Assembly: GCA_963740825.1 (NCBI GenBank)
Contig: CAVUFD010000002.1
Span: 4,267-68,266, forward strand
DNA from: an uncultured Chloroflexia bacterium
GTDB lineage: Bacteria; Chloroflexota; Limnocylindria; Limnocylindrales; CSP1-4
Reading direction: 5' to 3'
DNA: 64,000 nucleotides
The notes beneath the pieces were generated by a model. It was not told where the DNA came from. It saw nothing but the letters and a program-made list of their open reading frames with translations, and did not search any database. The translations under genes and the position numbers were made by a program. Positions 7,408 through 56,165 of this stretch are shown in pieces (the stretch's first letter is position 1; each line of letters begins with the position of its first letter).

Positions 7408-9046
7408 GTGCGGATCCCCGTGGCCCTGTACCTGCTCGCGCTCGTGGCCCGGCTCGCCGTCGCGGCCCTGTTCCCCGACCCCGCGTACCCCGATTCCTTC
7501 TACTACGTGGACGTCGCGCGCCAGCTCGCCGCGGGGCACGGATTCAACGTCGACTTCATCTGGATCTTCCCCGAGGTCGGCGGTGCGATCCCCGCCAATC
7601 CCATCCTGCCGATCCCGTCCAACGCGCACTGGATGCCGCTCGCCTCGATCGTCCAGGTGCCGTTCATCTGGCTGCTCGGCCCGACGGCGATGGCGTCGGC
7701 CCTGCCGTTCGCGTTCATCGGGGCGCTGGCCGCGCCGCTCGCGTGGGCGATCGGGCGGGACGCCGGCGCGCCGCGGTTCGTCTCGATCGGCGCCGGGATC
7801 CTGACCGCCTTCCCGGCGCTGTCGTTCGTGTACATGGCCCAGCCGGACAACTTCTCGCTGTACCAGCCGCTGGTCGCCGGGCTCGCTGTGGCTGGCCGGA
7901 CGCGGTCTGCGTGGCCACCCGCGCGACTTCGTCCTCGCCGGGCTCCTCGCCGGCGTCGCGACGCTGTCGCGCAACGACGGCGTGCTCGTGCTGGCCGTCA
8001 TCGTCGCGACCGTGCTGTGGGACCGGGTCCGTGCCCGCTGGGCGTCCGGCGGGAAGCCGGCCCGGCCGCCCCGGATCCCCCTCGCCGCGGCCGCCGGCTC
8101 GGTGGGCCTGTTCGTGCTCGCGGTCGTCCCCTGGTACGCGCGCCAGCTGGCGGTGTTCGGCCAGCTCTCGCCATCGACCTCGTCGGGCCGCGTGCTGTTC
8201 ATCCGCGACATCAGCGAGTGGAACAGCATCACGATCCCGGCCACGCTGGACCACCTCCTCGGGATGGGCATCGGCCCGCTGCTGCTGACCCGGGTCGGTG
8301 GCCTGGTCGCCGCGGCGTTCATCTTCTCGATCCTGGTCGGCGTGCTCGTGTTCGTCCCGTTCATGGTCATCGGGGCGTGGCGCCGGCGGCGCGACGCGCT
8401 GTTCGGGCCGTTCCTGGGCTACGTCGTGCTGCTGTTCGCGTTCAGCGCGATCGTGTCGGCGGTCCACGTCCCGGGCGGGACGTTCATCCACTCGGCCGTC
8501 GCGCTGGCCCCGCAGGGGTACGTGCTCGCGCTCGAGGGGATCGTCGCCGGCGCGGCCTGGCTCGCGGCACGACGGCGGGGCTGGGACTCGACCTCGGCGG
8601 CACGCGTGTTCGTCGGCGGGGCCGTCGCGTTCGGCGTCCTCGCCGCGGTCGTGGGCGCGAGCGCGGTGCACCGGAGCTGGGACGCCAAGCGCCAGAACAT
8701 GCAGGCCGTCGCGACGGCGCTCGACGCCGCGGGCGCGCCCGCGACCGACCGCGTGATGTCCATCGACGCCTCCGGCTACCGCTACTGGACGGGTCATCCG
8801 GGCGTGGTGCTGGTCAACGACCCGCTCGACACCGTGGAGCGGGTCGCGCGCGCGTACGGGATCCGGTGGCTCGTCCTCGAGCCGAAGGACAGCGTCGAGG
8901 CGGTGCGCGAGATCCTGGTCGACGACCAGCGGCCGCCGTGGGTCGGCCCGCCGATCCTCGAGCGCGACGGCGTCTCGCTCTATCCCGTCTGCCTCGACGC
9001 CGGTGACACCCGGTGCGCCACCGCCCTCGCGGGCACCAGCCGATGA
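7408..9046 (+). CDS. GT-C fold ArnT/PMT-family (COG1807, GT39/83-like) membrane glycosyltransferase #1; one frameshift near 7880
   Basis: GTG start. N-terminus MRIPVALYLLALVARLAVAALFPDPAYPDSFYYVDVARQLAAGHGF..., many TM helices, and a soluble C-terminal domain (...GIRWLVLEPKDSVEAVREILVDDQRPPWVGPPILERDGVSLYPV). It is transcribed divergently from the DUF2029 genes. Confidence 0.6.
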
Positions 9047-10690
9047 GCCGGCGCGAGGCGTGGGTCACGGCCCTGGTCGTGTTCGCGGTCGCGATCGCCG
9101 TGCGCGTCGTCGCCGCATCGGTCATCACGTTCCCCAAGCCCGAGGACACGGCCTACTACGTCGGCGTCGCGCGGAACCTCGTCGAGGGCCGCGGCCTCGT
9201 GTCCGACGCCCTGTGGAGCTACGGCACGCCGCCGCTCGTGTTTCCGCGGCCGGCGTTCGAGGTCTGGCTGCCGCTGCCGTCGCTGCTCGCGGCCATCCCG
9301 ATGGCCTCTGGCGGGCGGGCCGCGCCCCATCCCGCTCGAGGCGGCGATGCGGGCGGGCCAGGTGGTCTCCGTCGTCGCCGGCGCGATCGTGGCCGTCCTC
9401 GCCTGGCGCCTCGCCGCCGACGTCGCGGCGGAGCGCGGCCTTCCCGTCGGCCGGGCGCGAACGCTCGCGGCCGGAGCCGGGCTCACCGCGGCGGTGTACC
9501 TGCCGCTCCTGCTCCACTCCTCGCTGCCCGACTCCACGATGCTGTTCGGCGCGCTGGTCCTCGGCGCCGCGCTGCTGATGACCCGCGTCCTGCGCGACCC
9601 GCGCGGCGGGCGAGCGCTGGATGCCCGGCTGCTCGGGATCGGCGTGCTCATCGGCCTCGCGGCCCTCACGCGCAACGAGGCCGTCTGGCTCGCGCTGACG
9701 TGGGCGTGGCTGGCCTGGCGCGCCAGAGGCGCGCCGCGTGGCGTGCGGATCCGCCTCATCGGCATCGTCGCGGTCGTGAGCCTGCTCGTGTTCGCGCCGT
9801 GGGCGATCCGCGACTGGGCCGTGTTCGGGAACCCGCTCCCGGGGCAGGCCGCGACCAACGCGCTGTCGCTGAGCGGGTTCGACATCTTCGCCTGGAACCA
9901 GCCGCCGACCCTCGCCCGCTACCTCGCCGCCGGACCCGGGGGCCTGCTCGAGATGCGCGTCACCGGCCTCGGCCACAACCTGTTCAACGTCCTGCTGTTC
10001 CTGGGCATCCCGGTGTCCCTCATCGGGCTGTCGCGTGCCCTGGCAGGGGCGCGACCGGGCCCTCCGACCAGTCCTGCTGCGTGGCCGTGCTGACGTTCCT
10101 CGCCACCAGCCTGCTGTTCCCGGTCGCGACGACGTGGGGCACGTTCCTGCACGCCTCGGCGCCGGTCGCGGTGCTGCTGATCGTGTCCGCGCTCGGCGCG
10201 CTCGACGCGGGCATCGCCGCGCTGGGGCGGCGACTGGGCTGGACGCGGCCCGTGGCGTGGCTCGGGCCCGCTGCTGGCGATCTTCGCGTCGGCGCTGTTC
10301 TCGGTCGCGCTCCTGCCAGGCTTCGGCGGCAGCGCGCGATGCCTACGGCTCGCACCTATCGGGTACTGGCCGAGCAGATGGCGTCCATCGGGGCCCCGCT
10401 CGACGGCAGCGCCCCCGTCATCCACGACTTCCCGATCTGGCTCGCCGAGACCGAGCGCGTCCCCACCCTCGCGCTGCCCGACGAGGCCCCGTCGGACGTC
10501 CTCGACCTCGCGACCCACTTCGGCGCCAAGTGGCTGATCGTCGCCAAGGCCGAGCACGGCCAGTGGCCGGCGGTCCTCGACGGGCCGGACCCCGACGCGT
10601 CCTGCTTCGAGGAGGTCCTGCTGCCGATCCCCGCCGACCCAGCGGACGCGGAGGCGATCGAGGGCATCCGCGTGTTCCGGATCGCGTGCG
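9043..10690 (+). pseudogene. GT-C ArnT/PMT-family membrane glycosyltransferase #2; at least 4 frameshifts; 3' end uncertain
   Basis: The ATG overlaps the stop of gene #1 (ATGA). N-terminus MSRREAWVTALVVFAVAIAVRVVAASVITFPKPEDTAYYVGVARNLVEGRGL. Later blocks (AGQVVSVVAGAIVAVLAW...; VAVLTFLATSLLFPVATTWGTF; LLAIFASALFSVALLPGFGG; KWLIVAKAEHGQWPAVL) are in shifting frames. No in-frame stop precedes the downstream kinase. Confidence 0.45.
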
Positions 10691-10763
10691 CGGGCGTTGC
10701 GACCACGAACGGGCGCGACCGCGTGGACGGCACGCACCGCGGCGCCGGCGAGGCCCTCGCCGT

Positions 10764-11898
10764 GATGGCCGCGGCCGATACACTCCGCGCGATGGATGCA
10801 CCCAGGGGGGAGCCCGCGGCGAGCCGCTACGACGAGCTCCACGCACAGGCCGCCGACGCCTTGGGCTTCGCCGCGAACACGCTGCGCGGCATCCGCGATC
10901 GCTACCGCCAGGCGTACATCGACGAGATGGCGCGCTGGGAGGACCTGGACCAGGACCTCGTGGGGCTCGAGCGAGCCGGCGGGCTCCTGACTGCAGAGGC
11001 CGACCTTGCCTCCGTCGCCCCCAGCGATGGCGCGGCCGTGGCCGCGGAGGCGGGCGCCGCCGACGCGCAGCTCCGCATGGCCCGCACCGATGCCGTGGAG
11101 TCGACCGACGCCCTCGGCCGCCACGAGGCCGAGCTGTCGCGCCTCGAGCTCGCCATCCGCAACCTCGAGACGACCTGGCTGTTCGTGGAGCGGGGCGACG
11201 CGTCGCTCGTCACCGACCAGGACATGCCCAGGCTGCCCAGCGAGCTGCAGATGCGGATCGTCGAGGCACAGGAGGGCGAGCGCGTCCGCCTCGCCCAGGA
11301 GATCCACGACGGACCGGCGCAGGCGCTGTCGAACGCGATCTTCCAGGTCGAGTTCATCGACCGGGTCTTCGACTCGGATCGCGACATGGCCCGGACCGAG
11401 CTGCGGTTCCTGCGCGAGCTGCTGCGGCGCGAGCTCGGCGACCTTCGCACCTTCATCGGCCAGCTGCGGCCGCCCGTGCTGGTCGAGCTCGGCCTCGATG
11501 GGTCGATCGCCGACACGGTCGCCAACCAGGCGGCGCTGTCGGGCCTGCGCATCACGACCCAGTTGGTGGCCCCCGCGGGCGACATCCCCGAGGCTACGCA
11601 AACCGTCGTACTTCGCGTCGTGCAGGAGGCCCTGCAGAATGTCCGCAAGCACGCGGGCGCGACGAACGTGGTGGTCGCCACGCTGCTGGACGGTGGAGAA
11701 TGGGTGTTGGAGGTCCGCGACGACGGTCGCGGGTTCGATACCGGAGCGGTCGCGGCGCGAGGTCGTCGCAACTTCGGGCTCCAGTTCATGCGCGAGCGGG
11801 CCGAGCTTGTCGGCGCACGCTTTGAAGTACGTTCGCGGCCAGAGGCGGGCACGGTCGTCCGGCTGGCGATTCCGATGACGCGAAAGGAGAGCGGATGA
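10764..11898 (+). CDS. cytoplasmic DegS-like sensor histidine kinase (coiled-coil N-terminus, HisKA_3, HATPase_c)
   Basis: No TM segment. H-box RVRLAQEIHDGPAQALSNAIFQ, N-box VVQEALQNVRKHAGA, G-boxes DDGRGFD and GRRNFGLQFMRERAELVG. The start at the ATG near 10764 is inferred. Confidence 0.65.
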
Positions 11899-12638
11899 CC
11901 GAGTACCAGGGCCCCGAGCGCCGAAGGGGCAATTCGGACCGGCGCAACCAGTCGTACGAACGGGTGCGGATCGTCATCGTCGACGACCACGCCCTGTTCC
12001 GGGTCGGCATCCGCCAGATCCTCGAGCGGGAGCCCGACTTCGAGATCGTCGCCGAGGCCGATGACGCCCGGTCGGCGATGGATGCGGCGTTCGCGACCAA
12101 CCCCGACGTGATCCTGATGGACCTCTCGCTGCCCTCGCCCGGCGGCATCGAGACGACCCAGCGGGTCAAGCGCGAGCTCCCGGCGGCGGCGATCGTCGTC
12201 CTGTCGACGGAAGAGGACGAGGACGCGCTGTTCGACGCCATCAAGGCCGGCGCGGCCGCGTTCATCCTCAAGGACATCGCGCCCGAAGACCTCGTGATGA
12301 TCATCCGCCGCGTCGTCGCCGGCGAGTACCTGATCAACGACAAGGTGTTCGCCCGGCCCGCGGTCGCCTCGCGCGTGCTCAAGGAGTTCCGCGAGCTCGC
12401 CGTCTACGGCCAGGAGGCCGCCCCGATCTTCGCGCCGCTGTCGCCGCGCGAGGTCGAGATCCTGGACAACATCGCGCAGGGCATGACCAACAAGCAGGTC
12501 GCCTACGCCCTGTCGATCTCCGAGCAGACCGTCAAGAACCACATGAGCTCCATCCTCCGGAAGCTGTCCGTCAACGATCGGACCCAGGCGGTCGTGTACG
12601 CGATGCGCCAGGGCTGGATCCGGATGCCGGAGGACTGA
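11895..12638 (+). CDS. NarL/LuxR-family response regulator (REC + LuxR HTH, unusually long interdomain linker)
   Basis: ATGA overlap with the kinase stop. RIVIVDDHALFRVGIRQIL...VILMDLSLP (REC), and a LuxR HTH (LSPREVEILDNIAQGMTNKQVAYALSISEQTVKNHMSSILRKL) separated from REC by about 70 aa. Confidence 0.8.
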   Translation: MTEYQGPERRRGNSDRRNQSYERVRIVIVDDHALFRVGIRQILEREPDFEIVAEADDARSAMDAAFATNPDVILMDLSLPSPGGIETTQRVKRELPAAAIVVLSTEEDEDALFDAIKAGAAAFILKDIAPEDLVMIIRRVVAGEYLINDKVFARPAVASRVLKEFRELAVYGQEAAPIFAPLSPREVEILDNIAQGMTNKQVAYALSISEQTVKNHMSSILRKLSVNDRTQAVVYAMRQGWIRMPED

Positions 12639-12671
12639 GGGGAAGCGCCCGAGCGGGGGAAGCGTCACGCG

Positions 12672-13848
12672 ATGACCACGCCCGCCGACCCGCCGCCCGC
12701 CTCCGGGGCCCAGCTAGCCGTCGTCCTGGGCGCGGATGTCGTCGGCCTCGACCGCGAGCTGACCGAGATCGACATGCTCGTCGGACAGGCGAAGGCCGAG
12801 GCCGTCCGCCACGAGCAGAAGCGCGCGCAGCTGGCCGAGAAGCTGTCGTCCGCCGAGTCGGCGCGAGGGCACCGAGGCCTGGGCGCAGCTCGTCACGCTG
12901 ACGCGGCGATCCGTGCTGATGGAGGCGCAGGTCGACGTCCTCGAGGGCAAGCGCCGCGCGCTCGCCCGTCATCGCGACGCCATCGCGTCGCTCGTGGACG
13001 CCCTCGACGCCTTGCCGGCTGCCGAGGGGGCCCCGTCCGACGTGGCCGGTGCCGCGGCGGCCTCCGCGTCCCTGTCGCGGGTGGTGATGAGCGCCCAGGA
13101 GGACCTGCGACGCGACATCGCCCGCGCGATGCACGACGGCCCCGCGCAGTCGCTGACCAACATCGTGCTCCAGGCCGCGATCGTCGAGCGGCTGATGGAC
13201 CGCGAGCCCGACAGCGCGAGGGGCGAGCTGCGGCTGCTGGTGGCGATGGTCCAGCAGACCCTCGACGCGACCAAGAACTTCATCTTCGACGTCCGCCCGA
13301 TGGTGCTCGACGACCTGGGCGTGGTCCCGACGCTCCGGCGCATGGCGCGCGACCGGGGCCGGAAGGCAAAGATCCCAGTGGAGTTCGACTCGCTCGGCCA
13401 GGACCGGCGGCTGCCGATGGACATGGAGAGCACGATCTTCCGGATCCTCGACGAGGCCCTGGCGGCCTACCTCGGCCTGCTCCCCGATCGCGTGCTGGTG
13501 CATCTGGACTGGACGGACGAGCTCGAGGCCCGCGTGGTCGCCGAGCGCTCGGCGGCGATGCCGGGCGACGGCGAGGCGCTGCCCGAGGTCCCGACCGGGG
13601 ACGTGCCCGACGCGATCAAGCAGATGATCCAGGACCGCCACGACGCCCACCAGGCCGCCGTGGAGGCGGCCGAGCACGCCGCGATCGTGGAGCTGCCGGC
13701 CGGCGCCCTCAAGGACGTGACCGATCGTGCCTCGTCGATCGGCGGACGCGTGGAGCTCCTGGCGGGCGGCGGCGAGCTGCGCCTGCTGGTTCCGCTGCCG
13801 CGGGAGACGGCCGCGACGACCGGTGGGGGCGCGATCCGGGCGTCATGA
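12672..13848 (+). CDS. second DegS-like HisKA_3 protein with degenerate ATP-binding domain (putative pseudokinase/phosphatase partner); frameshift near 12866
   Basis: Coiled-coil N-terminus and H-box RRDIARAMHDGPAQSLTNIVLQ. The C-terminal domain lacks recognisable N, G1 and G2 boxes. No TM segment. Confidence 0.55.
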
Positions 13849-14018
13849 TCGACCGGCGCGTGCCCGGCAGCGGCGGCGAGACCGGCCCCGGGATCCTCGA
13901 GACCTCGATCGTGCTCGGCCTGGCCCTGCTGCTGGCCGCCGTCATCGTCGTGTTCTTCGGCGGCGCGCTGGCGGACACGATCGGCCTGCTCGTGGACGCG
14001 GCCCACGGCGGCTCCTGA
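13845..14018 (+). CDS. Flp/TadE-like prepilin (57 aa)
   Basis: The ATG overlaps the TGA of the upstream HK-like gene (ATGA). Sequence MIDRRVPGSGGETG|PGILETSIVLGLALLLAAVIVVFFGG: a G-XXXX-E prepilin-type motif followed by a hydrophobic helix. Confidence 0.5.
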   Translation: MIDRRVPGSGGETGPGILETSIVLGLALLLAAVIVVFFGGALADTIGLLVDAAHGGS

Positions 14019-14159
14019 CCGGGTTGACCGGCCGCACCGGGAGGGTCCTCCGGCCGGTCACGAATATGACCATCGTCCCATTGCTGGAGCGTGAGAGCGC
14101 GGGCTACGTTATCGCGGCCCTGGACCTCAGGGTGGCTCTCATTCGGGAGGCACATCTAC

Positions 14160-14330
14160 ATGGCGCTCATCACCTCGCTGCTCGCCTCGTTCCAGAAGGA
14201 CGAGGAAGGCCAGGGTCTCGCCGAGTACGCGCTGATCCTCGCCCTCATCGCGATCGTCGCGATCGTTGCCCTCATCTTCCTGGGCAACCAGGTCTCGTCG
14301 ATCCTGTCGACGGTCGGCGACTCGATCTAG
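14160..14330 (+). CDS. flp: Flp-family type IVb prepilin (56 aa)
   Basis: MALITSLLASFQKDEEG|QGLAEYALILALIAIVAIVALIFLGNQVSSILSTVGDSI. Classic G-XXXX-EY Flp motif, with an SD gggagg 8 nt upstream. Confidence 0.85.
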   Translation: MALITSLLASFQKDEEGQGLAEYALILALIAIVAIVALIFLGNQVSSILSTVGDSI

Positions 14331-14351
14331 TCGCTCACCGAAACGCAGCCT

Positions 14352-14380
14352 GAAGGCCGCCGAGGTGTTCGGCGGCCTTC
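14352..14380 (+). terminator. perfect 12-bp-stem hairpin downstream of flp1 (GAAGGCCGCCGA-ggtgt-TCGGCGGCCTTC)
   Basis: Inverted repeat located 22 nt after the flp1 stop. There is no U-tract, as is common in high-GC genomes. Confidence 0.5.
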
Positions 14381-14522
14381 GCGCATCCAGGCACCAAGCT
14401 CAGGGTGCCGGCGTGCAACAGTGGCCTGATGGTCAGGGTTGACGCAGTTGAGCAAGGCAACCTATTGTTCGCCCTCGCCGCGGCTGGGTCCGCGAGCTTT
14501 GTGGAAAGGAGGTGAACCATCC

Positions 14523-14687
14523 ATGTTCAATGCACTGATCGCTCTCATCAATCGTGACGAGGAAGGCCAGGGTCTCGCCGAGTACGCGCTGATCCTCGCC
14601 CTCATCGCGATCGTCGCCATCGTGGCGCTGATCTTCCTGGGCAACCAGGTCTCCACGATCCTCTCGACGGTCGGCGACTCGATCTAA
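14523..14687 (+). CDS. flp: Flp-family prepilin paralog 2 (54 aa)
   Basis: MFNALIALINRDEEG|QGLAEYALILALIAIVAIVALIFLGNQVSTILSTVGDSI. The mature part differs from flp1 by a single residue (S/T), while the leaders differ. SD AGGAGGTG. Confidence 0.85.
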   Translation: MFNALIALINRDEEGQGLAEYALILALIAIVAIVALIFLGNQVSTILSTVGDSI

Positions 14688-14802
14688 CCAGGTCGACAGC
14701 CAGAGTAGCGAAGCGCCGGCTGCCGACCAAGGCGGCCGGCGCGTTGCTACCGGGGGGCTGGACGCTCCGCGTAGAGTTGGATCGAATGGAGGTGACTCGA
14801 GC

Positions 14803-15000
14803 ATGATCGTCTTGGCGTTCAAGGCGCTCATTCAGCGGTTCACCGATCGTGACGACGACAACGGCCAGGGGCTGGCCGAGTACGCACTCATCCTTGCTCT
14901 CATCGCCGTCATCGCCATCGTCGCCCTGTTCTTCCTGGGAAGCCAGGTCAGCGACAAGCTCAGCGTCATCGGCGACACGATCGACTCGGTGGCACCCTGA
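14803..15000 (+). CDS. flp: Flp-family prepilin paralog 3 (65 aa, diverged)
   Basis: MIVLAFKALIQRFTDRDDDNG|QGLAEYALILALIAVIAIVALFFLGSQVSDKLSVIGDTIDSVAP. SD GGAGGTG. Confidence 0.8.
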   Translation: MIVLAFKALIQRFTDRDDDNGQGLAEYALILALIAVIAIVALFFLGSQVSDKLSVIGDTIDSVAP

Positions 15001-15032
15001 AGGGGCGCTCCACTCAACCAACGCACCACAGC

Positions 15033-15069
15033 GACGACCCGCTGGCCTAGCCGGCGGGTCGTTTCGTGT
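15033..15069 (+). terminator. intrinsic-terminator-like hairpin after flp3 (ACGACCCGC ... GCGGGTCGT followed by TTCGTGT)
   Basis: 9-bp GC stem followed by a short T-rich tail, 33 nt after the flp3 stop. Confidence 0.45.
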
Positions 15070-15312
15070 CCGGCACCACGGACAGCTCCGGGACCGGCAG
15101 CTCCGGGCCTGATCGCGCGCGTCCTCGAGCGGGTGGTGCGCGCCCAGTGTCGGGCTGTTGACATCGACGCACGCAGCCTTGCAGCGGACCTTACGATGTG
15201 CGGCGGTTCCCACCATTTCCTGCCAATGGTCCTAGGCCTATTGGCTGGTATCCGGCCAAAACACCGCTGCTAGAGTGGTGCCACCTGTCACATCCGGCAC
15301 GGGGAGGTTCTG

Positions 15313-16311
15313 TTGAAGCGCTCGAACCGGTTGGTCCTGCTTATCGGGATCTTCCTCGCACTCATCGCGTTCGTCTTGATCCTGGTGACCGTCAGCGGCG
15401 GTGGAAACAAAACGACCACCGAGAAGCCGACGACGACGACGTTGGTCGTGGCCACGAAGGCCATCGACCTCGGCGCCATCATCCAGTCGACCGACGTCAC
15501 GACCAACGACGTCGCGATCACCGACTTCCCGCCCAACGGGATCAAGCTCACCAGCCTGGTCGTCGGCCAGCTCGCGCGCCAGCCGGTGACCTCCGGCCAG
15601 GCGGTGACCACCGACGTCCTGCAGGGCGCCTCCGGCAGCATCCAGAACATCCAGGTCCCCGTCGGCCACGTCGCGATGGCCGTCCAGGTGGACCAGGTCA
15701 CGGGCGTCGGCACGATCATCAAGGCCGGCGACTACGTCGACCTCGTCACCGGCATCACCGGGACCGACAAGGTGCCGCTCGTGGTGTCCCCGACGATCCG
15801 ACCCGGTGGTGGCGGCGGCAACGCGACGCCGGCCCCGCGCGGCGGCTTCGCGCCCGAGGTCCTGCCCTACAACCCGACGACCGTCAAGACGCTCATCCAG
15901 GGTGTCCAGGTGCTCGGCACGCTGCTCCCGCCGCCCAGCTCGTCCAGCAACGGCAACGCGCAGGCGTCGCCCGGCACGGGCGCCGAGACGACCCTCAACG
16001 GCCAGCAGCAGATCGTGGTCCTCTCGGTCACGTCGCAGGACGTCGAGGTCATCAAGTTCGCCCAGATCGACGGCAACATCTCGCTGGTCCTGCGGTCCAC
16101 CGATGACTGCCAGCCCCTCGAGAGCCCGTCGCCCTCGCCGAGCGCCAGCCCGTCCGCGTCGCCCGGCCCCAGCCTGGCTCCGCTCTCGCCCTGCCCGGCC
16201 TTCCCGACGACCGGCGTCACCCTTCGCAAGCTGGTCGACGACTTCGGCGTCCTGCCTCCGCAGGTGATCGAGGTCATCCAGCCGACCCCGTACCCGCAGT
16301 TCGCACCGTAA
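15313..16311 (+). CDS. cpaB: Flp pilus assembly protein CpaB/RcpC (SAF domain)
   Basis: One N-terminal TM (LVLLIGIFLALIAFVLILV). SAF/CpaB-like core LVVATKAIDLGAIIQSTDV...QVPVGHVAMAVQVDQVTGVGTIIKAGDYVDLV, and a Pro/Ser-rich linker. Confidence 0.8.
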   Translation: MKRSNRLVLLIGIFLALIAFVLILVTVSGGGNKTTTEKPTTTTLVVATKAIDLGAIIQSTDVTTNDVAITDFPPNGIKLTSLVVGQLARQPVTSGQAVTTDVLQGASGSIQNIQVPVGHVAMAVQVDQVTGVGTIIKAGDYVDLVTGITGTDKVPLVVSPTIRPGGGGGNATPAPRGGFAPEVLPYNPTTVKTLIQGVQVLGTLLPPPSSSSNGNAQASPGTGAETTLNGQQQIVVLSVTSQDVEVIKFAQIDGNISLVLRSTDDCQPLESPSPSPSASPSASPGPSLAPLSPCPAFPTTGVTLRKLVDDFGVLPPQVIEVIQPTPYPQFAP

Positions 16312-16424
16312 GCGCGCCTCCACCGCGGGTCCACGACCCGCTCCCGCGACCCGATGGGCCGGTACACCACCGGCCCATCGACGTCCGATCCATCTGACAT
16401 CCCGGCCACCTGAATCCGAGACCC

Positions 16425-17699
16425 ATGGCAGACCAGATCCGCGTCCTGATCGTCGACGACATCCCGGAGACCCGCGATCACCTCTCGAAGCTCCTGGGCT
16501 TCGAGGCGGACATCGAGGTCGTGGGATCGGCGGCGTCCGGGCGCGAAGCCATCGAGATGGCGGCGAAGCTCACGCCGGACGTCGTCCTGATGGACATCAA
16601 CATGCCCGACATGGACGGCATCTCGGCGACGGAACGCCTGTCCGCCGAGGTGCCGACGGCCGCCGTCGTGATGATGTCGGTCCAGGGCGAGGCGGACTAC
16701 CTCCGCCGGTCGATGCTGGCCGGGGCTCGCGAGTTCCTCGTCAAGCCGTTCTCCTCGGACGAGCTCACCTCGTCGATCCGGCAGGTCTACACGCGCGAGC
16801 AGGAAAAGCTGTCGCGCATCGCGCTCGCACCACCCGTGGCCAGCAGCGCCGGCGGCACCGCCGTCGCGGTCCGGCCGGTCGTGGAACGCGAGAGCGGCGA
16901 GCCCGGCCGCGTGGTCGCGGTGTTCGGCCCCAAGGGGGGCGTCGGGCGCACGACGCTGGCGGTCAACCTCGCGGTTGCCGCGGCGACCGAGCTCGGCCAG
17001 CGGACCTGTCTCGTGGACGCGTCGTTCCAGTTCGGGGACATCGGCGTCCTGCTCAACCTCAACCCCAAGAACAAGTCCATCGCGGACGTCATCCCGGAGC
17101 TCGAGCACGGGGACATCGAGTCGCTCGACGCCTTCGTCATCAGTCACTCGGCCGGGATCAAGGTCCTGCTGGCGCCCCCGTCGCCGGAGATGGCCGAGCT
17201 CATCACCCCCGCCGGCGCGAAGCGCATGGTGGAAGCCCTCCGCGCCCAGAACGACCTGGTCGTCGTCGACTGCCCGTCGACCTTCAACGACACGACGCTG
17301 GCCATCCTCGACCAGGCCGATACCGTGCTCACGATGCTCTCGCTCGAGATCACGTCGATCAAGAACATCCGCCTCTTCCTCGAGGTGGCGGACCAGCTGG
17401 GGTACAGCCAGGACAAGGTCCGGCTCGTCCTCAATCGCGCCGATTCGTCCCTGGGCATCCGCGTCGCCGACGTGGAGCACTCGATCGGGCGGCGCGTGGA
17501 CCACACGATCGTCTCCGATGGCCGGAGCGTCGTCTACGCCCTCAACCGGGGCGTGCCGTTCTTCCTCTCCAATCGGGAGGCGCAGGTCTCACAGGACGTG
17601 CTGCGTCTCGCCTCGGCCGTGGTTGGCGCGACTCCGGCAGACGCCGAAGAGCCCAGCCGGAAGGCCGGTCAGAAGAAATCGCTGTTCGCGTGGCGATGA
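16425..17699 (+). CDS. cpaE: CpaE/TadZ pilus-assembly ATPase-like protein (ParA/MinD fold) with a canonical N-terminal REC domain
   Basis: REC (IRVLIVDDIPETRD...VVLMDINMPDMDG) followed by a deviant Walker A GPKGGVGRTTLAVNLA. Confidence 0.85.
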   Translation: MADQIRVLIVDDIPETRDHLSKLLGFEADIEVVGSAASGREAIEMAAKLTPDVVLMDINMPDMDGISATERLSAEVPTAAVVMMSVQGEADYLRRSMLAGAREFLVKPFSSDELTSSIRQVYTREQEKLSRIALAPPVASSAGGTAVAVRPVVERESGEPGRVVAVFGPKGGVGRTTLAVNLAVAAATELGQRTCLVDASFQFGDIGVLLNLNPKNKSIADVIPELEHGDIESLDAFVISHSAGIKVLLAPPSPEMAELITPAGAKRMVEALRAQNDLVVVDCPSTFNDTTLAILDQADTVLTMLSLEITSIKNIRLFLEVADQLGYSQDKVRLVLNRADSSLGIRVADVEHSIGRRVDHTIVSDGRSVVYALNRGVPFFLSNREAQVSQDVLRLASAVVGATPADAEEPSRKAGQKKSLFAWR

Positions 17700-17747
17700 A
17701 TGCGACAGCGCGCACAATGGCCGCACACGGCTGAAGGGGTGTAACCG

Positions 17748-19154
17748 ATGTCCCTCTTGAAGCGGATCGAAAGCGCTCGACCCGGCACGGGTCCGGCGCC
17801 GGACGGATCCAACGTTCCTGCCCCGGCGCCGGGTGGCGGCGGGAGCCAGACGCCGGCCGCGCCGCAGGGTCGCCTCATGAGTCAGGCACCTGTTCGCGAG
17901 TCGTTCCGGGACGTCAAGTTCCGGATCCAGAGCCGCGTCATCCAGGACCTGGACCCGAAGCTCGACCTGTCCAACCAGGTCGAGGTGCGCCGGCAGATCG
18001 AGGAGATCTTCGGCAAGGTCATCGACGAGGAAGGCCTCGCGCTGACCCGCGCCGAGCGCGTCCGGATGCTGGAGCAGATCACCGACGAGATCATCGGCCT
18101 CGGCCCGTTGGAGCCCCTGCTCCGCGACGAGTCGATCTCGGAGGTCATGGTCAACGGGCCGCGCCAGGTCTACATCGAGCGCAGCGGCCGCCTCGAGCTC
18201 ACGAACGTCGTGTTCCAGAACGACGACCACGTCATGCGCATCATCGATCGGATCATCGCTCCGATCGGTCGCCGCGTTGACGAGTCGTCGCCGATGGTCG
18301 ACGCTCGCCTCACCGACGGCTCCCGCGTGAACGCCATCATCCCGCCCCTGTCCCTGGTCGGCCCGGTCATCACCATCCGGAAGTTCTCGGCCTCCCCCTT
18401 CACGGTCGACGACCTCATCCGGTTCGGCACGGCCACGCCGGACATGTTCGAGTTCCTGCGCGCCGCGGTCGAGGCCCGCCTGAACGTCTTCGTCAGCGGC
18501 GGCACCGGCTCGGGCAAGACCACCACGCTCAACGTCCTGTCCTCGTTCATCCCGAACGACGAGCGCATCGTCACGATCGAGGACGCCGCCGAGCTGCAGC
18601 TCCGCCAGGAGCACGTGGTGACGCTCGAGTCCCGGCCCCCCAACATCGAGGGCAAGGGCCAGATCCCGATCCGTGAGCTCGTCCGCAACTCGCTGCGGAT
18701 GCGGCCCGACCGCATCATCGTCGGCGAGTGCCGCTCCGGCGAGGCCCTGGACATGCTCCAGGCCATGAACACCGGCCACGATGGCTCGATGTCCACCGGC
18801 CACGCGAACAGCCCGCGCGACATGCTCGCCCGGCTCGAGACGATGGTGCTGATGGCGGGCGTCGACCTGCCGGTCCGCGCCATCCGCGAGCAGATCGCCT
18901 CCGCGGTGGACGTCATCGTCCACCAGTCGCGGCTCAAGGACGGCACGCGCCGCATCACGAACATCACCGAGGTCCAGGGCATGGAGGGTGATGTCATCGT
19001 CATGCAGGACGTGTTCGTGTTCGAGCAGACGGGCGTCGTCGAAGGCAAGATCCAGGGCCGCCTGAAGCCGACCGGCATCCGGCCCAAGTTCGTCGAGAAG
19101 TTCGAGGTCCAGGGCATCCACCTGCCGCCGGGCCTGTTCGGCTTCAGCTACTAA
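17748..19154 (+). CDS. cpaF: CpaF/TadA secretion ATPase
   Basis: Walker A VSGGTGSGKTT, plus IVTIEDAAEL and IIVGECRSGEALDMLQAMNTGHDGSMSTGHANS. Confidence 0.9.
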   Translation: MSLLKRIESARPGTGPAPDGSNVPAPAPGGGGSQTPAAPQGRLMSQAPVRESFRDVKFRIQSRVIQDLDPKLDLSNQVEVRRQIEEIFGKVIDEEGLALTRAERVRMLEQITDEIIGLGPLEPLLRDESISEVMVNGPRQVYIERSGRLELTNVVFQNDDHVMRIIDRIIAPIGRRVDESSPMVDARLTDGSRVNAIIPPLSLVGPVITIRKFSASPFTVDDLIRFGTATPDMFEFLRAAVEARLNVFVSGGTGSGKTTTLNVLSSFIPNDERIVTIEDAAELQLRQEHVVTLESRPPNIEGKGQIPIRELVRNSLRMRPDRIIVGECRSGEALDMLQAMNTGHDGSMSTGHANSPRDMLARLETMVLMAGVDLPVRAIREQIASAVDVIVHQSRLKDGTRRITNITEVQGMEGDVIVMQDVFVFEQTGVVEGKIQGRLKPTGIRPKFVEKFEVQGIHLPPGLFGFSY

Positions 19155-19179
19155 CCAGGCTGGAGAGGGAGACATCGCC

Positions 19180-20197
19180 GTGGAGCCCACGACCATCCTC
19201 ATCGCCGGCATCGCCGCCCTCGCGATCCTCGTGATCGCCGTGGGCATCGCGATGTCCGGTGGCGGCTCGGGCGTCAACGCGCGCCTCGAGCGCTACGCCT
19301 CGGGCCGGGAAGCGAAGCCCGCGGCCGGCGCCTCCGGGCAGGGCGGCCTCCAGGAGGCCCTCCAGTCCAGCCAGGCCATGGCCCAGCTCAACAAGGTCGT
19401 CGAGCAGCGCGACTTCGGGGCGAACCTCGCCCGCGAGATCGCCCGCGCCGACCTGCGGCTGAAGGTCAGCGAGTACCTCGTGATCTGGGCCGCCTGCATC
19501 ATCGGCGTGCCGATCCTCATGGTCGTCGCTGTCGGTGGCGTTCCCCGCCCTGCGCAACCCGATCGCGCTCCTGATCGGCGCGCTGATCGGGTTCATGCTC
19601 CCGCGCTTCTGGCTCAACCGCCGCAAGTCGAGCCGGCTGAACTCGTTCAACAAGCAGCTGCCGGACACGATCACGCTGATCGCGAACGCGCTCCGCGCGG
19701 GCTCGTCGTTCCTCCAGGCGATCGAGCTCGTCGTCCGCGAGTCGCGGCCCCCGATCTCCACGGAGTTCGGGCGAGTCATCCGCGAGGTCAACCTCGGCCT
19801 GTCGTTCGAGGTCGCGCTGGAGAACATGGTCCGGCGCGTGAGGTCGGACGACCTCGAGCTGATGGCGACCGCCATCTCGATCCAGCACACGGTCGGCGGC
19901 AACCTCGCCGAGATCCTCGACTCGATCGCCTTCACCATCCGCGAACGGGTCCGGATCAAGGGCGAGATCAGGACCCTGACGGCGCAGCAGCGCCTGTCGG
20001 GCTACGTCGTCGGCTTCCTGCCCATCGGCCTCGCCGGCTTCCTGTTCATCGCGGCGCCCGGCTTCATGTCGCCGATGTTCGACAACCGGGTCTCCCTGCT
20101 CGGCCTGCCTGGTGGCGTGCTCATCCTGTTCCTCGGCGGGTTCGCGATGTTCATCGGGTTCATGCTCATCCGCAAGATCGTGGACATCGAGGTCTAG
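19180..20197 (+). CDS. tadB: TadB (T2SS-F domain inner-membrane platform protein); frameshift near 19540
   Basis: N-terminal TM and periplasmic part lie in one frame. The T2SSF domain (LPDTITLIANALRAGSSFLQAIELVVRES...) lies in another. The join sits at a G/C run. Confidence 0.75.
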
Positions 20198-20200
20198 CCG

Positions 20201-21137
20201 ATGGAATCCCTGTTGCCCTTTCTCATCGCCGGCGTCGCGGCGATCGCGATCCTCCTGATCTTCGTCGGCCTGGCCGGCGGCTCGCCCGTGGATCCCGTCC
20301 AGGCGCGCCTGACCCAGCTGGGCACGATGCAGGCCAAGAACCTCGAGGAGCTCGAGCTCCAGCAGCCATTCATCGAGCGCACGCTGCGTCCGCTGGCGCA
20401 ACGGTTCTCGGGTGCGACCTCGCGCATGGCGAGCACCTCGTTCACCGCGACCACCGAGAAGCGTCTCGCGCTCGCCGGCAACCCGGGCGGCCTGCGCGTC
20501 GCGGACTGGCTGGGCATCAAGGCGGTCGGCGCGATCGTCGGCGGCGTGATCTTCGGCCTGTTGTTCTTCGTCGTCGGGTTCATGAACCTGCCGCTCATCC
20601 TGCGGCTGGCGATGATCCCGATCGGGATTGGCGTTCGGCTACACGATCCCCGAGTTCTGGCTCGGCGGCCGCGTCCGCAAGCGCCAGAAGGCCATCCTGC
20701 TCATGATCCCGGACGCCCTGGACCTGCTGACGATCTCCGTCCGCGCGGGCCTCGGCTTCGACGGGGCGCTGGGCAAGGTCGTCGAGAAGCTCAAGGGACC
20801 CCTCACCGAGGAGTTCCGGCGGGCGCTGGCGGAGATCCGCGTCGGCAAGGCCCGGCGCGACGCGCTCCGGGACATCGTCCCGCGGACCGAGGTCCCGGCC
20901 CTCACCAACTTCATCGGGGCGATCATCCAGGCCGAGCAGCTCGGCGTGTCGATCAGCAAGGTGCTCCAGGTCCAGTCGGAGCAGCTGCGCATCGAGCGCC
21001 GGCAGCGCGCAGAGGAGATGGCGGCCAAGGCGCCGATCAAGATGCTGTTCCCGCTCGTCGGGTGCATCTTCCCGTCGCTGTTCATCGTCATCCTCGGCCC
21101 GGCGATCATCCTGATCATGATCAACCTCCACACCTAG
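20201..21137 (+). CDS. tadC: TadC (T2SS-F domain platform protein); frameshift near 20628
   Basis: MESLLPFLIAGVAAIAILLIFVGL... then, in a second frame, IPDALDLLTISVRAGLGFDGALGKVVEKL... Confidence 0.7.
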
Positions 21138-21149
21138 GCCTCCCGTCCG

Positions 21150-21539
21150 ATGGCGACCACCGCCGCCACCGGTGTCGCGCGCAACGTCGAGCGATCGACG
21201 CTGCTCGCCGAGCGGCTGGAGACGGCCGGCTCGCTGTGGGCCAAGTTCATGGGGTTGATGGGGCGGCCGAACCTGCCGCCCGGCGACGGGCTGTGGCTGC
21301 CGGCCAGCAACGGGATCCACATGATGTTCATGCGCTTCCCGATCGACGCCGTGTTCGTGACGCGCGCGGATCCGTCCGGCGTGCGGCGCGTCCGCTCCGT
21401 GCACCCGTCGCTGGCCGCGTGGACGGGCCTCGTGCCCTTGATCCGGGGCGCCGACGGGGTCCTGGAGCTGCCGGTCGGGACCATCGCCGCGACCGGGACC
21501 GTCGTGGGCGACCGCGTGGAGATCGTGGAGCGCTCGTAG
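21150..21539 (+). CDS. DUF192 (COG1430) domain protein
   Basis: LWLPASNGIHMMFMRFPIDAVFV, typical of DUF192. It is the last gene of the tad operon, 13 nt after tadC. Confidence 0.6.
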   Translation: MATTAATGVARNVERSTLLAERLETAGSLWAKFMGLMGRPNLPPGDGLWLPASNGIHMMFMRFPIDAVFVTRADPSGVRRVRSVHPSLAAWTGLVPLIRGADGVLELPVGTIAATGTVVGDRVEIVERS

Positions 21540-46766: not shown

Positions 46767-47428
46767 CTACCGCTGAGCCTCGACCTGGTGCGGGATCCCC
46801 GCCTCGTCGAGCGCCGCTGCCAGGAGCGATGCATCGATCGCCCCCGATCGCAGGATCGCGGGGCGATCGGTCGTGCAGTCCACGACGGTCGAGGCCGGGC
46901 CGCCGCGGATCGGGCCGCCGTCGATGACCAGCGCGATCGCGTCGCCGAGCGTCTCCGCCACCTCGCTCGCGTCCGCGGCGTCGGGCTGCCCCGACAGGTT
47001 GGCCGAGGTCGTCGGCAGCGGGCCGAGGGCCGCGGCCAGCGCCCGCGGCGCCGGGTGGTCAGGGACGCGGACGCCGATCGTGGGCGCGCCCGCGGCGAGG
47101 ACGCGCGGCAGCCGGGCGTCGGGGTGAACCGGCAGCACGAGGGTCAGGCCGCCCGGCCAGAAGCGATCGGCGAGGAGCTGCCGCGGCCGGCGACCGAGAC
47201 GCCCAGCGTCCAGGCCTGTGCCGCGTCGGCGAGCAGCACCGCGACCGCCTTCTCGGGAGGCCGCCGCTTGGCGGCGAACAGGCGCTCGATCGCGTCGGGC
47301 AGCGCGAGGTCGGCGGCGATCCCGTAGACGGTGTCGGTGGGGATGGCGACGATCCGCCCGGCCCGGAGGTGCTCGATCGCCTCGGCGCGTGCCGCGTCCC
47401 CGTCGGGGAGGACCCGGGTCGCCGTCAC
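46767..47428 (-). CDS. tsaC: L-threonylcarbamoyladenylate synthase (TsaC/YrdC/Sua5 family); frameshift near 47180
   Basis: N-terminus IVAIPTDTVYGIAADL and C-terminus PLPTTSANLSGQP...STVVD lie in two frames. Confidence 0.7.
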
Positions 47429-48381
47429 GAGGCCGACGCCACCGCGACGCGGGCGGCCTCCGCGAGCCGCTCGCCGCTGCGCGCCGCCTCCTCGGGCGAC
47501 GCGAGGACCAGCGCCTCGATGAGGGCCCCGACGCCGTCCGCCTCGACGGGCGCGGCCACGTACCGCCCGGCCGCCCGGACCACGGCGGGGGCCGTGGCCA
47601 TCGCCGCCCCATGCCCGGCGTCGCCGATCATCTCGATGTCGTTCAGCGCGTCGCCGACGGTCATCACCTGGCCCATCGGGACCCGCGCGCGGTTCGCCAG
47701 CCAGGCGACCGCCCGGCCCTTCGACACCCCCGGCGCGACGAACTCGAGGAACCGCGGGTGCGAGACCGTGGCCCCGGCTCGCCCGGCGAACGTCCGCCGC
47801 GCCTCCTCGATCAGCTCCATCGGCCTCGGCGGATCCCCGACCGCGATGACCTTGGACACCGGCTTCCGGATCGCGGCCGCGAGGTCGCCCACGATGTCCG
47901 CCTCCGGCCCGAGGTAGCCCGAGTAGTCCTCGAACCTCGAGTCGCCGCGCCACACCACGATCCGCTCCAGGTCGTTGACATGCGGATCGAGGCCGCGTTC
48001 CAGGCACCACGCGATCGCGGCCCGCGCCACGTCGGCGGCCATCGGGGTGTGGTGCAGGATCCGGCCCACGGGCGCCCGGAACGGGAGGTCGGCGGCGTCG
48101 ATGACGGCGGCAGCGACCGGCATCGCGCGGATGACGGCGCCCTGGTGGCCGATGATCGGGTCCGTCAACCCCAGCTGGTGCGCGTAGACCGCCGCCGAGC
48201 TCGCCATGCGGCCGGTCGCGATCGAGACGTGGACGCCGCGCCGGACTGCCTCGCGGATCGCCTCGGCCGTGCGCTCGGACACCCGGAAGTCGGGGCCGAT
48301 CACCGTCCCGTCGAGATCGAGGGCGATGAGCCGGACCGGGAACGCCGGGGCGGGCCGGTCGGCCAAGGGCAGCCCGTCCAT
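47425..48381 (-). CDS. Cof-type HAD-IIB family hydrolase
   Basis: LIALDLDGTVIG ... MTVGDALNDIEM. Confidence 0.75.
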   Translation of the reverse strand: MDGLPLADRPAPAFPVRLIALDLDGTVIGPDFRVSERTAEAIREAVRRGVHVSIATGRMASSAAVYAHQLGLTDPIIGHQGAVIRAMPVAAAVIDAADLPFRAPVGRILHHTPMAADVARAAIAWCLERGLDPHVNDLERIVVWRGDSRFEDYSGYLGPEADIVGDLAAAIRKPVSKVIAVGDPPRPMELIEEARRTFAGRAGATVSHPRFLEFVAPGVSKGRAVAWLANRARVPMGQVMTVGDALNDIEMIGDAGHGAAMATAPAVVRAAGRYVAAPVEADGVGALIEALVLASPEEAARSGERLAEAARVAVASAS

Positions 48382-51660: not shown

Positions 51661-52784
51661 GGTCGGTCCCGTCGGCGCCGGCCCGGCCGTCCGAGTCGGT
51701 CAGATGGCTCAGGCGGTCGGCCTGGTCGGCCATGACGAGGGCGTCGATGAGGGGGTCGAGCTGGCCCTCGAGCACGCCCGGCACGTTGTGGATCGTGACC
51801 CCGATCCGGTGGTCGGTGACCCGGTTGTCGGGGAAGTTGTAGGTCCGGATCTTCTCGGACCGGTCGCCCCCACCCACCATCACCTTGCGTTCCGCGCTCT
51901 GCGCCTCGCGCTGCTTCGCGAGCTCCATGTCGTATAGCCGGGAGCGCAGCACGGACATCGCCTTGGCCTTGTTCTTGTGCTGGCTCTTCTCGTCCTGGAT
52001 CTCGACCACGAGGCCGGTCGGCAGGTGCGTGATCCGGACCGCGGAGTCCGTGGTGTTGACCGACTGGCCGCCGCGGCCCGGAGCTGCGCTTGACGTCGAT
52101 CCGGAGGTCCCGCGCCTCGTCGATGTCGACCTCGACCTCGTCGGCCTCGGGCAGGACGATCACGGTCGCCGTGCTCGTGTGGATCCGGCCGCTCGACTCC
52201 GTGCTGGGCACGCGCTGGACGCGATGGACGCCGCCCTCGAACTTGAGCCGGCTGTAGGCGCCGTCGCCGGCCACCTCGAGGATCGCCTCCTTGGTCCCGC
52301 CGATGCCGGTCTCGTTGACGCTCATCAGGTCGGTCTGGAAGCGGTGCTCCTGCGCGTAGCGGCTGTACATGCGGAGCAGCTCGGTCGCGAACAGCGCGGC
52401 CTCCTCGCCGCCGGCGCCGGCACGAATCTCGACGATGACGTTGCGGTCGTCGTTGGGGTCGCGCGGCAGGAGGGAGACGCGGAGGTCGTCGACCAACGCC
52501 GTCTCACGTGTCTCCAGCGAGGCGATCTCCTCGCGCGCGAGCGTCTTCAGCTCCTCGTCCGACTCGGCGTCGCGCATGTGCCGGGCGCCCTCGAGCTGCG
52601 AACGGACGTCGACGAGCTCGCGGTAGGCGCCGACGACCGGCTCGAGCCTGGACAGCTCGCGGCCGAGGCGGCGCATCGCGGCCGGGTCGCCCAGCACCTC
52701 CGGGGTGGCGAGCTGGGTCGACACGTCGTCGTACTGGCGGGCGAGGTCCTCGAGCTTGGCGTCGAGGCCGTGTTCGTCGGTCAT
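51653..52784 (-). CDS. prfA: peptide chain release factor 1; at least one frameshift near 52075
   Basis: GGQ motif region ...[38 protein letters not shown] (RF1-type). The N-terminal and C-terminal halves are in different frames. Confidence 0.8.
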
Positions 52785-55150: not shown

Positions 55151-55269
55151 CGGGTGGTTCGTGCGGGGACCGACGGCCCGATGGTCCTGGGCACCGACGC
55201 CGGCGCACGTGGCGGGGGCACCGTGGCGGGGCCCCGCGCCCGGCCCACGCGGAGTGCATGATCGGCGCG

Positions 55270-55952: not shown

Positions 55953-56165
55953 CCCGTGCCGCCGGGTCCCGAAGCGGAGCCAGGCCGCGCCGCCGGGTCC
56001 GACCCCGGGCGCCTAGCCGCGCCGCCGGACGCCATCCGCGCCGCCGGCCGAGCTCGCGCCTGCGGGTCCCAACCCGGGCGCCTAGCCGCACGCCGGCCGA
56101 CCCGGGCGCCCCGACCCGGGCGTCCAGCCGCGCCGCCGGCCGACCCGGGCGCCTCGCGTCACGCC
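55932..56165. repeat. array of about 5-6 imperfect direct repeats derived from / overlapping the 3' end of the response-regulator gene (core GACCCGGGCGCCTAGCC)
   Basis: Copies at about 55932, 55994, 56062, 56099, 56114 and 56150. Period about 62-68 bp, then shorter. Each of the first three carries the regulator's terminal ...GPDPGA-stop coding string. Confidence 0.6.

Follow-up and report, generated by a model that had tools for sequence, protein, structure and literature searches.

The window, a 64,000-nucleotide (nt) stretch of the genome of an uncultured soil bacterium of the Candidatus (Ca.) Limnocylindria (Chloroflexota), on which all window coordinates below are counted, carries a short array of Flp-type pilin genes that adjoins cpaB-tadZ-tadA-tadB-tadC (15313-21137; Pfam) on the 5′ side. 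The region probably holds the pilin genes at the head of a Tad (type IVc, Flp) pilus locus, and the best explanation of the whole is an Flp array with two genes homogenized by gene conversion, one gene for a variant pilin and one diverged pilin-like gene; we give this explanation as a whole a probability of about 0.75. The genes of the array are as follows:

13845-14018, + strand, orf57: 57 amino acids (aa), a diverged Flp-like small membrane protein (G/PGILETS...), assigned by hhalign and synteny
14160-14330, + strand, flp1: 56 aa, with a 17-aa leader (MALITSLLASFQKDEEG) and a 39-aa mature pilin (QGLAEY...VSSILSTVGDSI); Flp_Fap E 7e-5, 23 bits
14523-14687, + strand, flp2: 54 aa, with a 15-aa leader (MFNALIALINRDEEG) and a 39-aa mature pilin; Flp_Fap E 3.7e-4
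14803-15000, + strand, flp3: 65 aa, with a 21-aa leader and a 44-aa mature pilin; Flp_Fap E 7e-5

Prepilin genes of the array

Flp prepilins are short precursors (about 50-80 aa) in which a hydrophilic or neutral leader ending in glycine precedes some 20 or more hydrophobic residues (PMC10191384). The leaders of flp1, flp2 and flp3 end in G and are followed by the hydrophobic AEYALILALIAIVAIVALIFLG, an arrangement that fits a class III signal peptide, and all three genes satisfy the G/XXXXEY processing motif (E at +5, Y at +6; the slash marks the cleavage site) as G/QGLAEY. At that site the flp1 precursor, translated from its open reading frame (ORF), divides into MALITSLLASFQKDEEG and QGLAEYALILALIAIVAIVALIFLGNQVSSILSTVGDSI; the mature part of flp2 reads QGLAEY...VSTILSTVGDSI; and flp3 divides into MIVLAFKALIQRFTDRDDDNG and QGLAEYALILALIAVIAIVALFFLGSQVSDKLSVIGDTIDSVAP, with the junction ...RDDDNG/QGLAEY...DSVAP.

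Searches place the three peptides in the Flp family. The Pfam model Flp_Fap (PF04964) matches them with E values of 7e-5 to 3.7e-4 and 20.7-23 bits, against a gathering score of 32.2. A search of a large protein collection with Flp1 returned at least 8000 relatives, with E values down to 5e-23; most of the matches listed are exactly 56 aa long and 80-100% identical, and most are named pilus assembly protein Flp/PilA or carry PF04964. A profile of the family matches two solved structures, Caulobacter PilA and another Flp pilin (8u1k, 8u2b; E 6e-4 and 1.3e-3), with E5-Y6 in register. An NCBIfam scan of the four peptides gave only spurious matches to transmembrane segments. Judged by motif, profile and context, flp1, flp2 and flp3 are intact, real Flp-type prepilin genes. 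A first-pass annotation had counted four such genes, and the count holds: for flp1-3 it rests on the motif, Pfam E values of about 1e-4, the tad context and homologues; for orf57, on comparison and hhalign only.

The predicted first mature residue is Gln (G/QG) in flp1 (codon at 14211), flp2 and flp3. We take this start to resemble that of archaeal Epd-type pilins (KG/Q), and formation of pyroglutamate at the N-terminal Gln is, we assume, conceivable. For the flp3 product, the archaeal model Class_IIIsignal (PF04021) also gives a weak match, with E 0.002.

Only position 30 (S30 vs T30) separates the 39-residue mature parts of flp1 and flp2, as had been noted earlier and as the ORF translations confirm; at the DNA level there are one nonsynonymous and six synonymous changes, and a different stop codon (TAG/TAA). 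To speak of pilin variants is misleading for this pair, which encodes essentially one mature subunit. Homology between the two genes sets in abruptly with the DEEG codons (GACGAGGAAGG) and runs to the stop codon; the flanks are unalignable. The flp3 gene, correctly described as diverged, is 71-73% identical to flp1 and flp2 in DNA and so has not recently been homogenized with them. Its C-terminus is divergent and longer (...SQVSDKLSVIGDTIDSVAP), and it forms its own orthologue group, conserved across the class (..DK(L/F)S(V/I)IG....SV.P).

The description as diverged fits orf57 as well. Its precursor divides at the motif site into MIDRRVPGSGGETG and PGILETSIVLGLALLLAAVIVVFFGG...; the motif is G/PGILET, in which E at +5 is kept, T replaces Y at +6 and P stands at +1. 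The G/QGLAEY motif earlier ascribed to all four genes is thus shared by flp1-3 but not by orf57. The orf57 start overlaps the TGA stop of the upstream gene for a HisKA_3-domain protein (ATGA), an overlap kept in relatives, and related loci have orf57 in the same place. Its 189 homologues, 53-60 aa long, are all unannotated, and Pfam has no match for it. In an hhalign comparison of the orf57 family (32 sequences) with the flp family (23 sequences), the probability was 97.2% and E was 4.2e-11, with GPGILET aligned to GQGLAEY; in more distant genomes the orf57 position holds a small gene with a canonical G/QGLVEYGLILAL (G/QGLVEYG) and a similar ...IDAATGG tail. The hhalign match and these positional homologues point to orf57 as the fourth Flp-family gene of the array, and one that is strongly diverged; its product is a candidate for a minor pilin or for a pilin-like membrane partner.

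Leaders and mature parts in related genomes

A CpaB scan of species-representative genomes yielded 31 loci (best CpaB identity 73%), almost all labelled as Chloroflexota, Chloroflexia or Ca. Limnocylindria/Limnocylindrales metagenome-assembled genomes (MAGs), a single long-read soil survey being the source of many. By motif scan, two to five tandem flp genes lie 5′ of cpaB in about 30 loci from independent MAGs, among them loci with short-read-style contig names (k141_, NODE_, contig_) and hence different assemblers; recurrence on this scale means that the triplication in the window is not an assembly artefact. Three further long contigs with close Flp1 homologues (L001-L003) share the gene order of the window: histidine kinase, response regulator, HisKA_3 protein, 57-aa ORF, three flp genes, cpaB, tadZ, tadA, tadB, tadC and a DUF192 gene.

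Copies 1 and 2 were compared in 23 genomes. Their mature peptides differ within a genome by a mean of 1.0 and a median of 0 aa, and between genomes by 5.1-5.8 aa; the corresponding DNA distances are 7.3 nt within a genome vs about 20 nt between. When copies were re-paired among genomes, the observed value was never reached in 20,000 permutations (P≤5e-5). In the close clade (the window, L001, L004, L005 and L011) the leaders are 0.55 apart within a genome vs 0.12-0.17 between orthologues, and the mature part shows the reverse trend (0.4 aa within vs 2.4-2.6 aa between). Of 61 genes, 32 are closest in mature DNA to another gene of their own genome, and 11 are so in leader DNA.

Mature variants are genome-specific: GNQVS(S/T)ILSTVGDSI in the window, GGQVSEILSTVGGSI in both L004 copies and GNQVSQILSTVGKSI in both L005 copies. 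A table of variable sites shows that codons 26, 30 and 37, together with some synonymous sites, have genome-specific states common to both paralogues, and that a synonymous signature specific to flp2 at codons 19-20 is kept in three genomes (the window, L001, L011) and erased in three others (L004, L005, L006). Such a mosaic of retained and erased sites is the pattern that conversion tracts produce. The comparison points to an old duplication that gave flp1 and flp2, followed by recurrent, patchy interlocus gene conversion confined to the homologous mature-coding segment, acting alongside purifying selection. Gene conversion did not figure in the first-pass annotation; it best explains why the mature parts are nearly identical and the leaders different.

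The leaders had been called unrelated, a description that does not survive comparison. The 17-aa form of the flp2 leader in relatives (MTLFNALIALINRDEEG) has 8 of 17 residues identical to MALITSLLASFQKDEEG and another 5 conservatively replaced; in both, as is usual for Flp leaders, [KR]-D-E-E-G comes after a hydrophobic or amphipathic stretch, and by this alignment the two are homologous. Two leader types, MAL(I/V)TSLLASFQKDEEG and M..FNALIALINRDEEG, recur between genomes; they would persist because they lie outside the conversion tracts. The length of the flp2 leader varies by indels even among close relatives (15 vs 17 aa).

Constraint was gauged by pN/pS, the ratio of nonsynonymous to synonymous proportions of differences, from Nei-Gojobori counts. 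Flp1-type leaders gave 0.42 in the close clade and 0.51 in the whole set (0.71 for codons 2-13, whole set), the flp2 leader 0.16 in the close clade, and the mature parts 0.28-0.39. The leaders are constrained weakly and on the whole less than the mature peptide, and a leader-specific function is without support. In the closest genomes the flp1 leader shows 0-1 differences in 51 nt vs 5-9 in 117 nt of the mature part. The notion that the flp1 leader and its 5′ untranslated region (UTR) are ultra-conserved DNA was rejected, since leader pS and mature pS are both 0.21 in the close clade.

Expression signals and gene neighbourhood

Strong Shine-Dalgarno (SD) sequences lie 7-9 nt before the ATG of flp1 (GGGAGG, 14145-14150), flp2 (AAGGAGGTGA, 14506-14515) and flp3 (GGAGGTGA, 14788-14795). 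All four genes had been credited with one, but orf57 has no strong SD of its own. The other predicted signals within the array are these:

14066-14110, + strand: predicted promoter-like region of flp1, with ATGACCATCGTCCCATTG, a weak -35 (TTGCTG, 14081-14086), an 18-nt spacer and a -10-like TACGTT (14105-14110)
14118-14132, + strand: G+C-rich hairpin (CCCTG-GACCT-CAGGG) at the predicted 5′ end of the flp1 mRNA
14352-14380, + strand: terminator-like hairpin after flp1, with a 12-bp G+C stem and no U tract (centroid -25.6 kcal/mol, z -2.45)
14439-14468, + strand: putative sigma-70-type promoter of flp2, near-consensus (TTGACG-18-TATTGT; consensus scan)
14705-14750, + strand: terminator-like hairpin after flp2, stronger than the other two (-41.2 kcal/mol, z -6.24)
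15034-15062, + strand: terminator-like hairpin after flp3, with a 13-bp stem, followed by TTTCGTGT

The promoter-like blocks of flp1, which went unreported in the consensus promoter scan because of the weak -35, are kept in 13 related loci, and the neighbouring intergenic DNA is variable. Relatives hold the 5′ hairpin of flp1 with other stems (CCCTC..GAGGG, CCCC..GGGG, CCCCGG..CCGGGG), that is, with paired substitutions, and they also keep the hairpin 3′ of flp1. For flp2, the boxes TTGAC(G/A) and TA..GT, a covarying 5′-UTR hairpin and the SD are kept in 11 loci; the rest of the spacer DNA is not. No convincing promoter or -35 was found for flp3 in the window genome; in more distant relatives TTGACA-17-TA..GT is present at that position. 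An Rfam scan of 12500-16500 (E<=1) gave three sub-threshold chance matches (19-24 bits vs gathering scores of 47-100), and the intergenic regions of this interval are without a known RNA family.

Dissimilar, conserved promoter-like boxes make it plausible that flp1 and flp2 are transcribed separately, from unlike promoters; there may be read-through into flp3. Independent regulation, as first proposed for the array, is to that extent plausible in silico for flp1 and flp2 (conserved boxes, SD sequences and hairpins); flp3 has an SD and a hairpin of its own, with no convincing promoter in this genome. The hairpins first described after flp1 and flp3 are both there, but the description left out that of flp2, although it is the strongest.

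Over 21 Limnocylindria loci, about 130 nt before cpaB (approximately 15180-15312) are better conserved than the CpaB protein. The blocks that are kept read CCTTGCAG, ACCTTACG, GGTCCTAG(G/C)CC and TGCTAGAGTGGTGCCACCTGTCACA; the last is an extended -10-like TGnTAGAGT followed by a near-palindrome, and the region has no Rfam match. A complex promoter/operator is one possible identity, a structured 5′ leader another. An 18-nt pattern, ATGNNCNTNGNCCNATTG, is common to the upstream regions of flp1 and cpaB (14066-14083 and 15226-15243), where a -35 is expected, and may be the site of a common regulator. Its apparent enrichment (2 matches vs 0.08 expected) was not used as evidence; the count is circular because the pattern was derived from those two sites.

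The genes that surround the array, and two broken genes elsewhere in the window, are:

9013-11898, + strand: HisKA_3 histidine kinase (Pfam)
11895-12638, + strand: LuxR-type response regulator (Pfam)
12672-13848, + strand: HisKA_3-domain protein, in two frames in the assembly (Pfam HisKA_3, E 1e-12)
15313-16311, + strand: cpaB/rcpC, with SAF and RcpC domains (Pfam RcpC, E 3.7e-13)
16425-17699, + strand: tadZ/cpaE-like ParA/MinD-type ATPase with a full receiver domain (Pfam Response_reg, E 9e-29; AAA_31/CbiA/ParA)
17748-19154, + strand: tadA/cpaF secretion ATPase (Pfam T2SSE, E 1.3e-65)
19180-20197, + strand: tadB platform protein, in two frames in the assembly (T2SSF in 19535-20197)
20201-21137, + strand: tadC platform protein, in two frames in the assembly (change at about 20613-20630; T2SSF domain)
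21150-21539: DUF192 (COG1430) gene, directly 3′ of tadC
46770-48010, - strand: tsaC/sua5, broken
51656-52720, - strand: prfA, essential, broken exactly at the GGQ codons

The order of histidine kinase and LuxR-type regulator before the flp array is identical in L001-L003, and the two are candidate regulators of the array (9013-11898 and 11895-12638). No HATPase_c domain was detected in the scanned part of the HisKA_3-domain protein that follows them. The Response_reg match of the TadZ/CpaE-like ATPase (100 bits) covers a full-length rather than a degenerate receiver domain, which suggests that pilus assembly may be controlled by phosphorylation. The DUF192 gene keeps its place after tadC in relatives (L003). 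The remaining genes of the window are housekeeping genes (ATP synthase, mreB, murA, glyA, prfA and others), beside which lies an IS110-family transposase (DEDD_Tnp_IS110 and Transposase_20; 53889-55136, - strand); on its other side is a second pair of LuxR-type response regulator and HisKA_3 kinase (55134-58196).

Five genes of the window (tadB, tadC, the HisKA_3 protein, prfA and tsaC) are each read in two frames. In tadB the change lies at about 19484-19560, with the N-terminal portion in the different frame. Intact TadC homologues of 310-311 aa (up to 98% identical) and an intact 391-aa HisKA_3 homologue from L001, where synteny is conserved, each match the two window frames and align over the breaks; related long-read MAGs have similar breaks inside some flp genes. 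Together with the broken essential prfA, these observations make the frame changes most likely single-base indel errors of long-read assembly and not pseudogenes. The changes in tadB and tadC both adjoin TGGCGTTC; a programmed +1 frameshift or split genes at this sequence were considered and rejected in view of the intact TadC homologues, the breaks in prfA, tsaC and the HisKA_3 gene, and the similar breaks in related MAGs. The window copies of flp1-3 are unaffected: they are intact and match relatives.

Single flp copies in related loci have out-of-frame tails (L003 8370-9340, L004 8525-8743, L006 8557-8961, L027 7816-8196, L002 8455-8634). In related long-read MAGs these are probably indel errors too, so counts of intact flp genes in such genomes are likely lower bounds.

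A model of the array and its relation to known systems

In the model that we favour, each prepilin would have a short cytoplasmic leader that ends in Gly and would be cut after that Gly by a TadV-type prepilin peptidase, as is usual in the family. Cleavage would free an almost purely alpha-helical subunit that starts QGLAEY and has 39 aa (Flp1/Flp2) or 44 aa (Flp3), and the subunit would be polymerized by TadA/TadB/TadC with CpaB and TadZ, again by analogy with the family. The flp1 and flp2 genes would be old paralogues whose mature parts are kept nearly identical in each genome by recurrent patchy conversion and purifying selection. Conversion tracts would reach only as far as homology does, bounded 5′ by the leader and 3′ by the stop codon, so that leaders and flanks diverge. 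In effect, two genes, each transcribed on its own, would supply one major pilin, either at a higher dosage or from two promoters. The product of flp3 would be a conserved variant of its own, set apart by its exposed C-terminus and probably used as an alternative or minor subunit, and orf57 would be a very diverged Flp homologue, translationally coupled to the HisKA_3 protein.

Several points weigh against this model. The Flp_Fap scores lie under the curated cut-off (23 vs 32.2 bits). Pfam scans of about 50 window ORFs turned up neither a Peptidase_A24 domain (TadV/CpaA-type prepilin peptidase) nor a gene for a TadE/TadF/TadG pseudopilin, and the called genes of L001-L003 likewise hold no trace of a prepilin peptidase, whose gene may lie elsewhere in the genome, outside the window. 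Promoters, terminators, processing and pilus assembly are all predictions, and the sequence assembly is prone to indels. The flp1 and flp2 copies of the window differ at 7 of 117 mature nt, much like their distance to the L006 copies (6-8); conversion in the window genome is therefore not recent, the window sequence alone is insufficient proof of conversion, and the case rests on the comparative set. The permutation test on that set ignores phylogeny, strong purifying selection on a short hydrophobic peptide contributes to the similarity, and, as leader orthology fades in distant genomes, some arrays there may stem from independent duplications.

The same facts can be read in other ways. Had one flp gene been duplicated in tandem recently, with fast divergence of its leader and no gene conversion, near-identical mature parts with unalignable flanks would be expected, as they are found. 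Both leader types and the distinct promoters, however, occur in L001, L004, L005, L011 and L027, which makes the duplication older than these lineages; with the six synonymous differences, which argue against a very recent copy, and the mosaic across genomes, this leaves a recent duplication very unlikely. That a single flp gene was mis-assembled into three copies has a negligible chance of being right: the assembly is error-prone, with frame changes in prfA, tsaC, tadB, tadC and the HisKA_3 gene, but these errors are single-base indels and not repeat expansions, the three copies differ in leaders, flanks, promoters, terminators and stop codons, and the array recurs in about 30 independent MAGs from different assemblers, short-read ones included. 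The alternative for orf57 carries more weight. It could be a small single-pass membrane protein that partners the HisKA_3 protein, for example as an anchor or sensor partner, as the conserved ATGA overlap, the T for Y at +6, the P at +1, the lack of a Pfam match and homologues all annotated as hypothetical would allow; the hhalign match to the flp family (97%, E 4e-11, with the G/xxxxE register aligned) and the canonical G/QGLVEYG of positional homologues in more distant genomes make a purely non-pilin role doubtful. The pilin role and the kinase-partner role are mutually compatible.

The first-pass annotation had proposed leader-specific processing or secretion kinetics. In this view the leader types would give one mature pilin different targeting, processing rates or fates, or the freed leader peptides would act in the cytoplasm, and selection would set the conversion boundary at the junction of leader and mature part. 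It draws on a flp1 leader that is identical in the window, L001, L004 and L006, though their CpaB proteins are only 67-73% identical to that of the window, on leader types recognizable in several genomes, on the pN/pS of 0.16 for the flp2 leader in the close clade, and on a break in homology four codons before the cleavage site. Yet the leaders are homologous and both of the general Flp pattern, codons 2-13 of the flp1-type leader (pN/pS 0.71) are under weaker constraint than the mature part, leader lengths shift by indels in close relatives too (15 vs 17 aa in flp2), and there is no sign of two peptidases, no peptidase at all having been found among the window ORFs scanned; we regard such a function as improbable. 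A more speculative form, which we rate lower again, is that selection keeps two or three leaders on one mature pilin and tolerates conversion only up to the cleavage site; the leader would decide when or where the pilin is processed, or the freed leader would report pilin flux to the HisKA_3/LuxR module, with orf57 as membrane partner. Conversion bounded by the ends of homology remains the explanation that we prefer.

Comparable arrays are known elsewhere. The tad loci of Pasteurellaceae (Haemophilus ducreyi flp1-flp2-flp3; Aggregatibacter actinomycetemcomitans flp-1/flp-2) likewise have short tandem flp genes at the tad 5′ end, with the G/XXXXEY motif and tadZ, tadA, tadB and tadC downstream; their flp genes lie inside a long flp-tad operon with tadV, rcpA/B (secretin) and tadD-G (PMC3201912). 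In the window, by contrast, the flp genes look like transcription units of their own, the secretin, tadV and tadE/F/G were not found, and a single mature peptide is encoded twice. Bdellovibrio bacteriovorus flp1-flp4 are paralogues with different promoters whose differential regulation was shown experimentally; the Bdellovibrio paralogues differ in sequence and are non-redundant, and some lie away from the tad locus (PMC5430801). For these paralogues, no homogenization of the mature part has been reported.

The closest solved structure by profile is Caulobacter crescentus PilA (8u1k, 8u2b; E 6e-4), in which E5-Y6 and the hydrophobic helix align and the mature protein of about 40-45 aa has no globular head (PMC11067988). 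C. crescentus differs in having a single pilA, diderm machinery with the CpaC secretin and an N-terminus that reads ATAIEYG where the window has QGLAEYA. Haloferax volcanii PilA1-PilA6 are paralogues whose hydrophobic N-terminal domains are nearly the same; a pilus can be built from each, and the subsets expressed vary with conditions (PMC4371748). Those genes are archaeal and dispersed, and only the H-domain is identical, the large C-terminal domains being different; the window pilins are nearly identical over the whole mature part and differ in the cleaved leader. Within the same phylum, the Tad pili of Chloroflexales have the same core, rcpC-tadZ-tadA-tadB-tadC with flp, but belong to a different class, and tadE/G (tadEEG), not found in the window, are reported there (PMC7332563). 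No analysis of flp paralogues was made for that group. In a literature search, nothing came up on pili of Limnocylindria, nor on gene conversion between flp paralogues.

Tad/Flp pili are widespread organelles of adhesion and colonization in which tandem flp paralogues are familiar, and Limnocylindria are a class of bacteria abundant in soil and fresh water, most of them uncultured. The locus is an ordinary Flp array and adds documentation of a tad locus in this class; domain-bounded concerted evolution is a modest addition and not a new type of system. The array would be a lineage-wide case in which conversion homogenizes only the filament-forming part of the protein and the cleaved leader and regulatory flanks diverge. 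It cautions that near-identical pilin paralogues need not mean recent duplication, and it may serve as a natural experiment on what a working Flp leader peptide needs.

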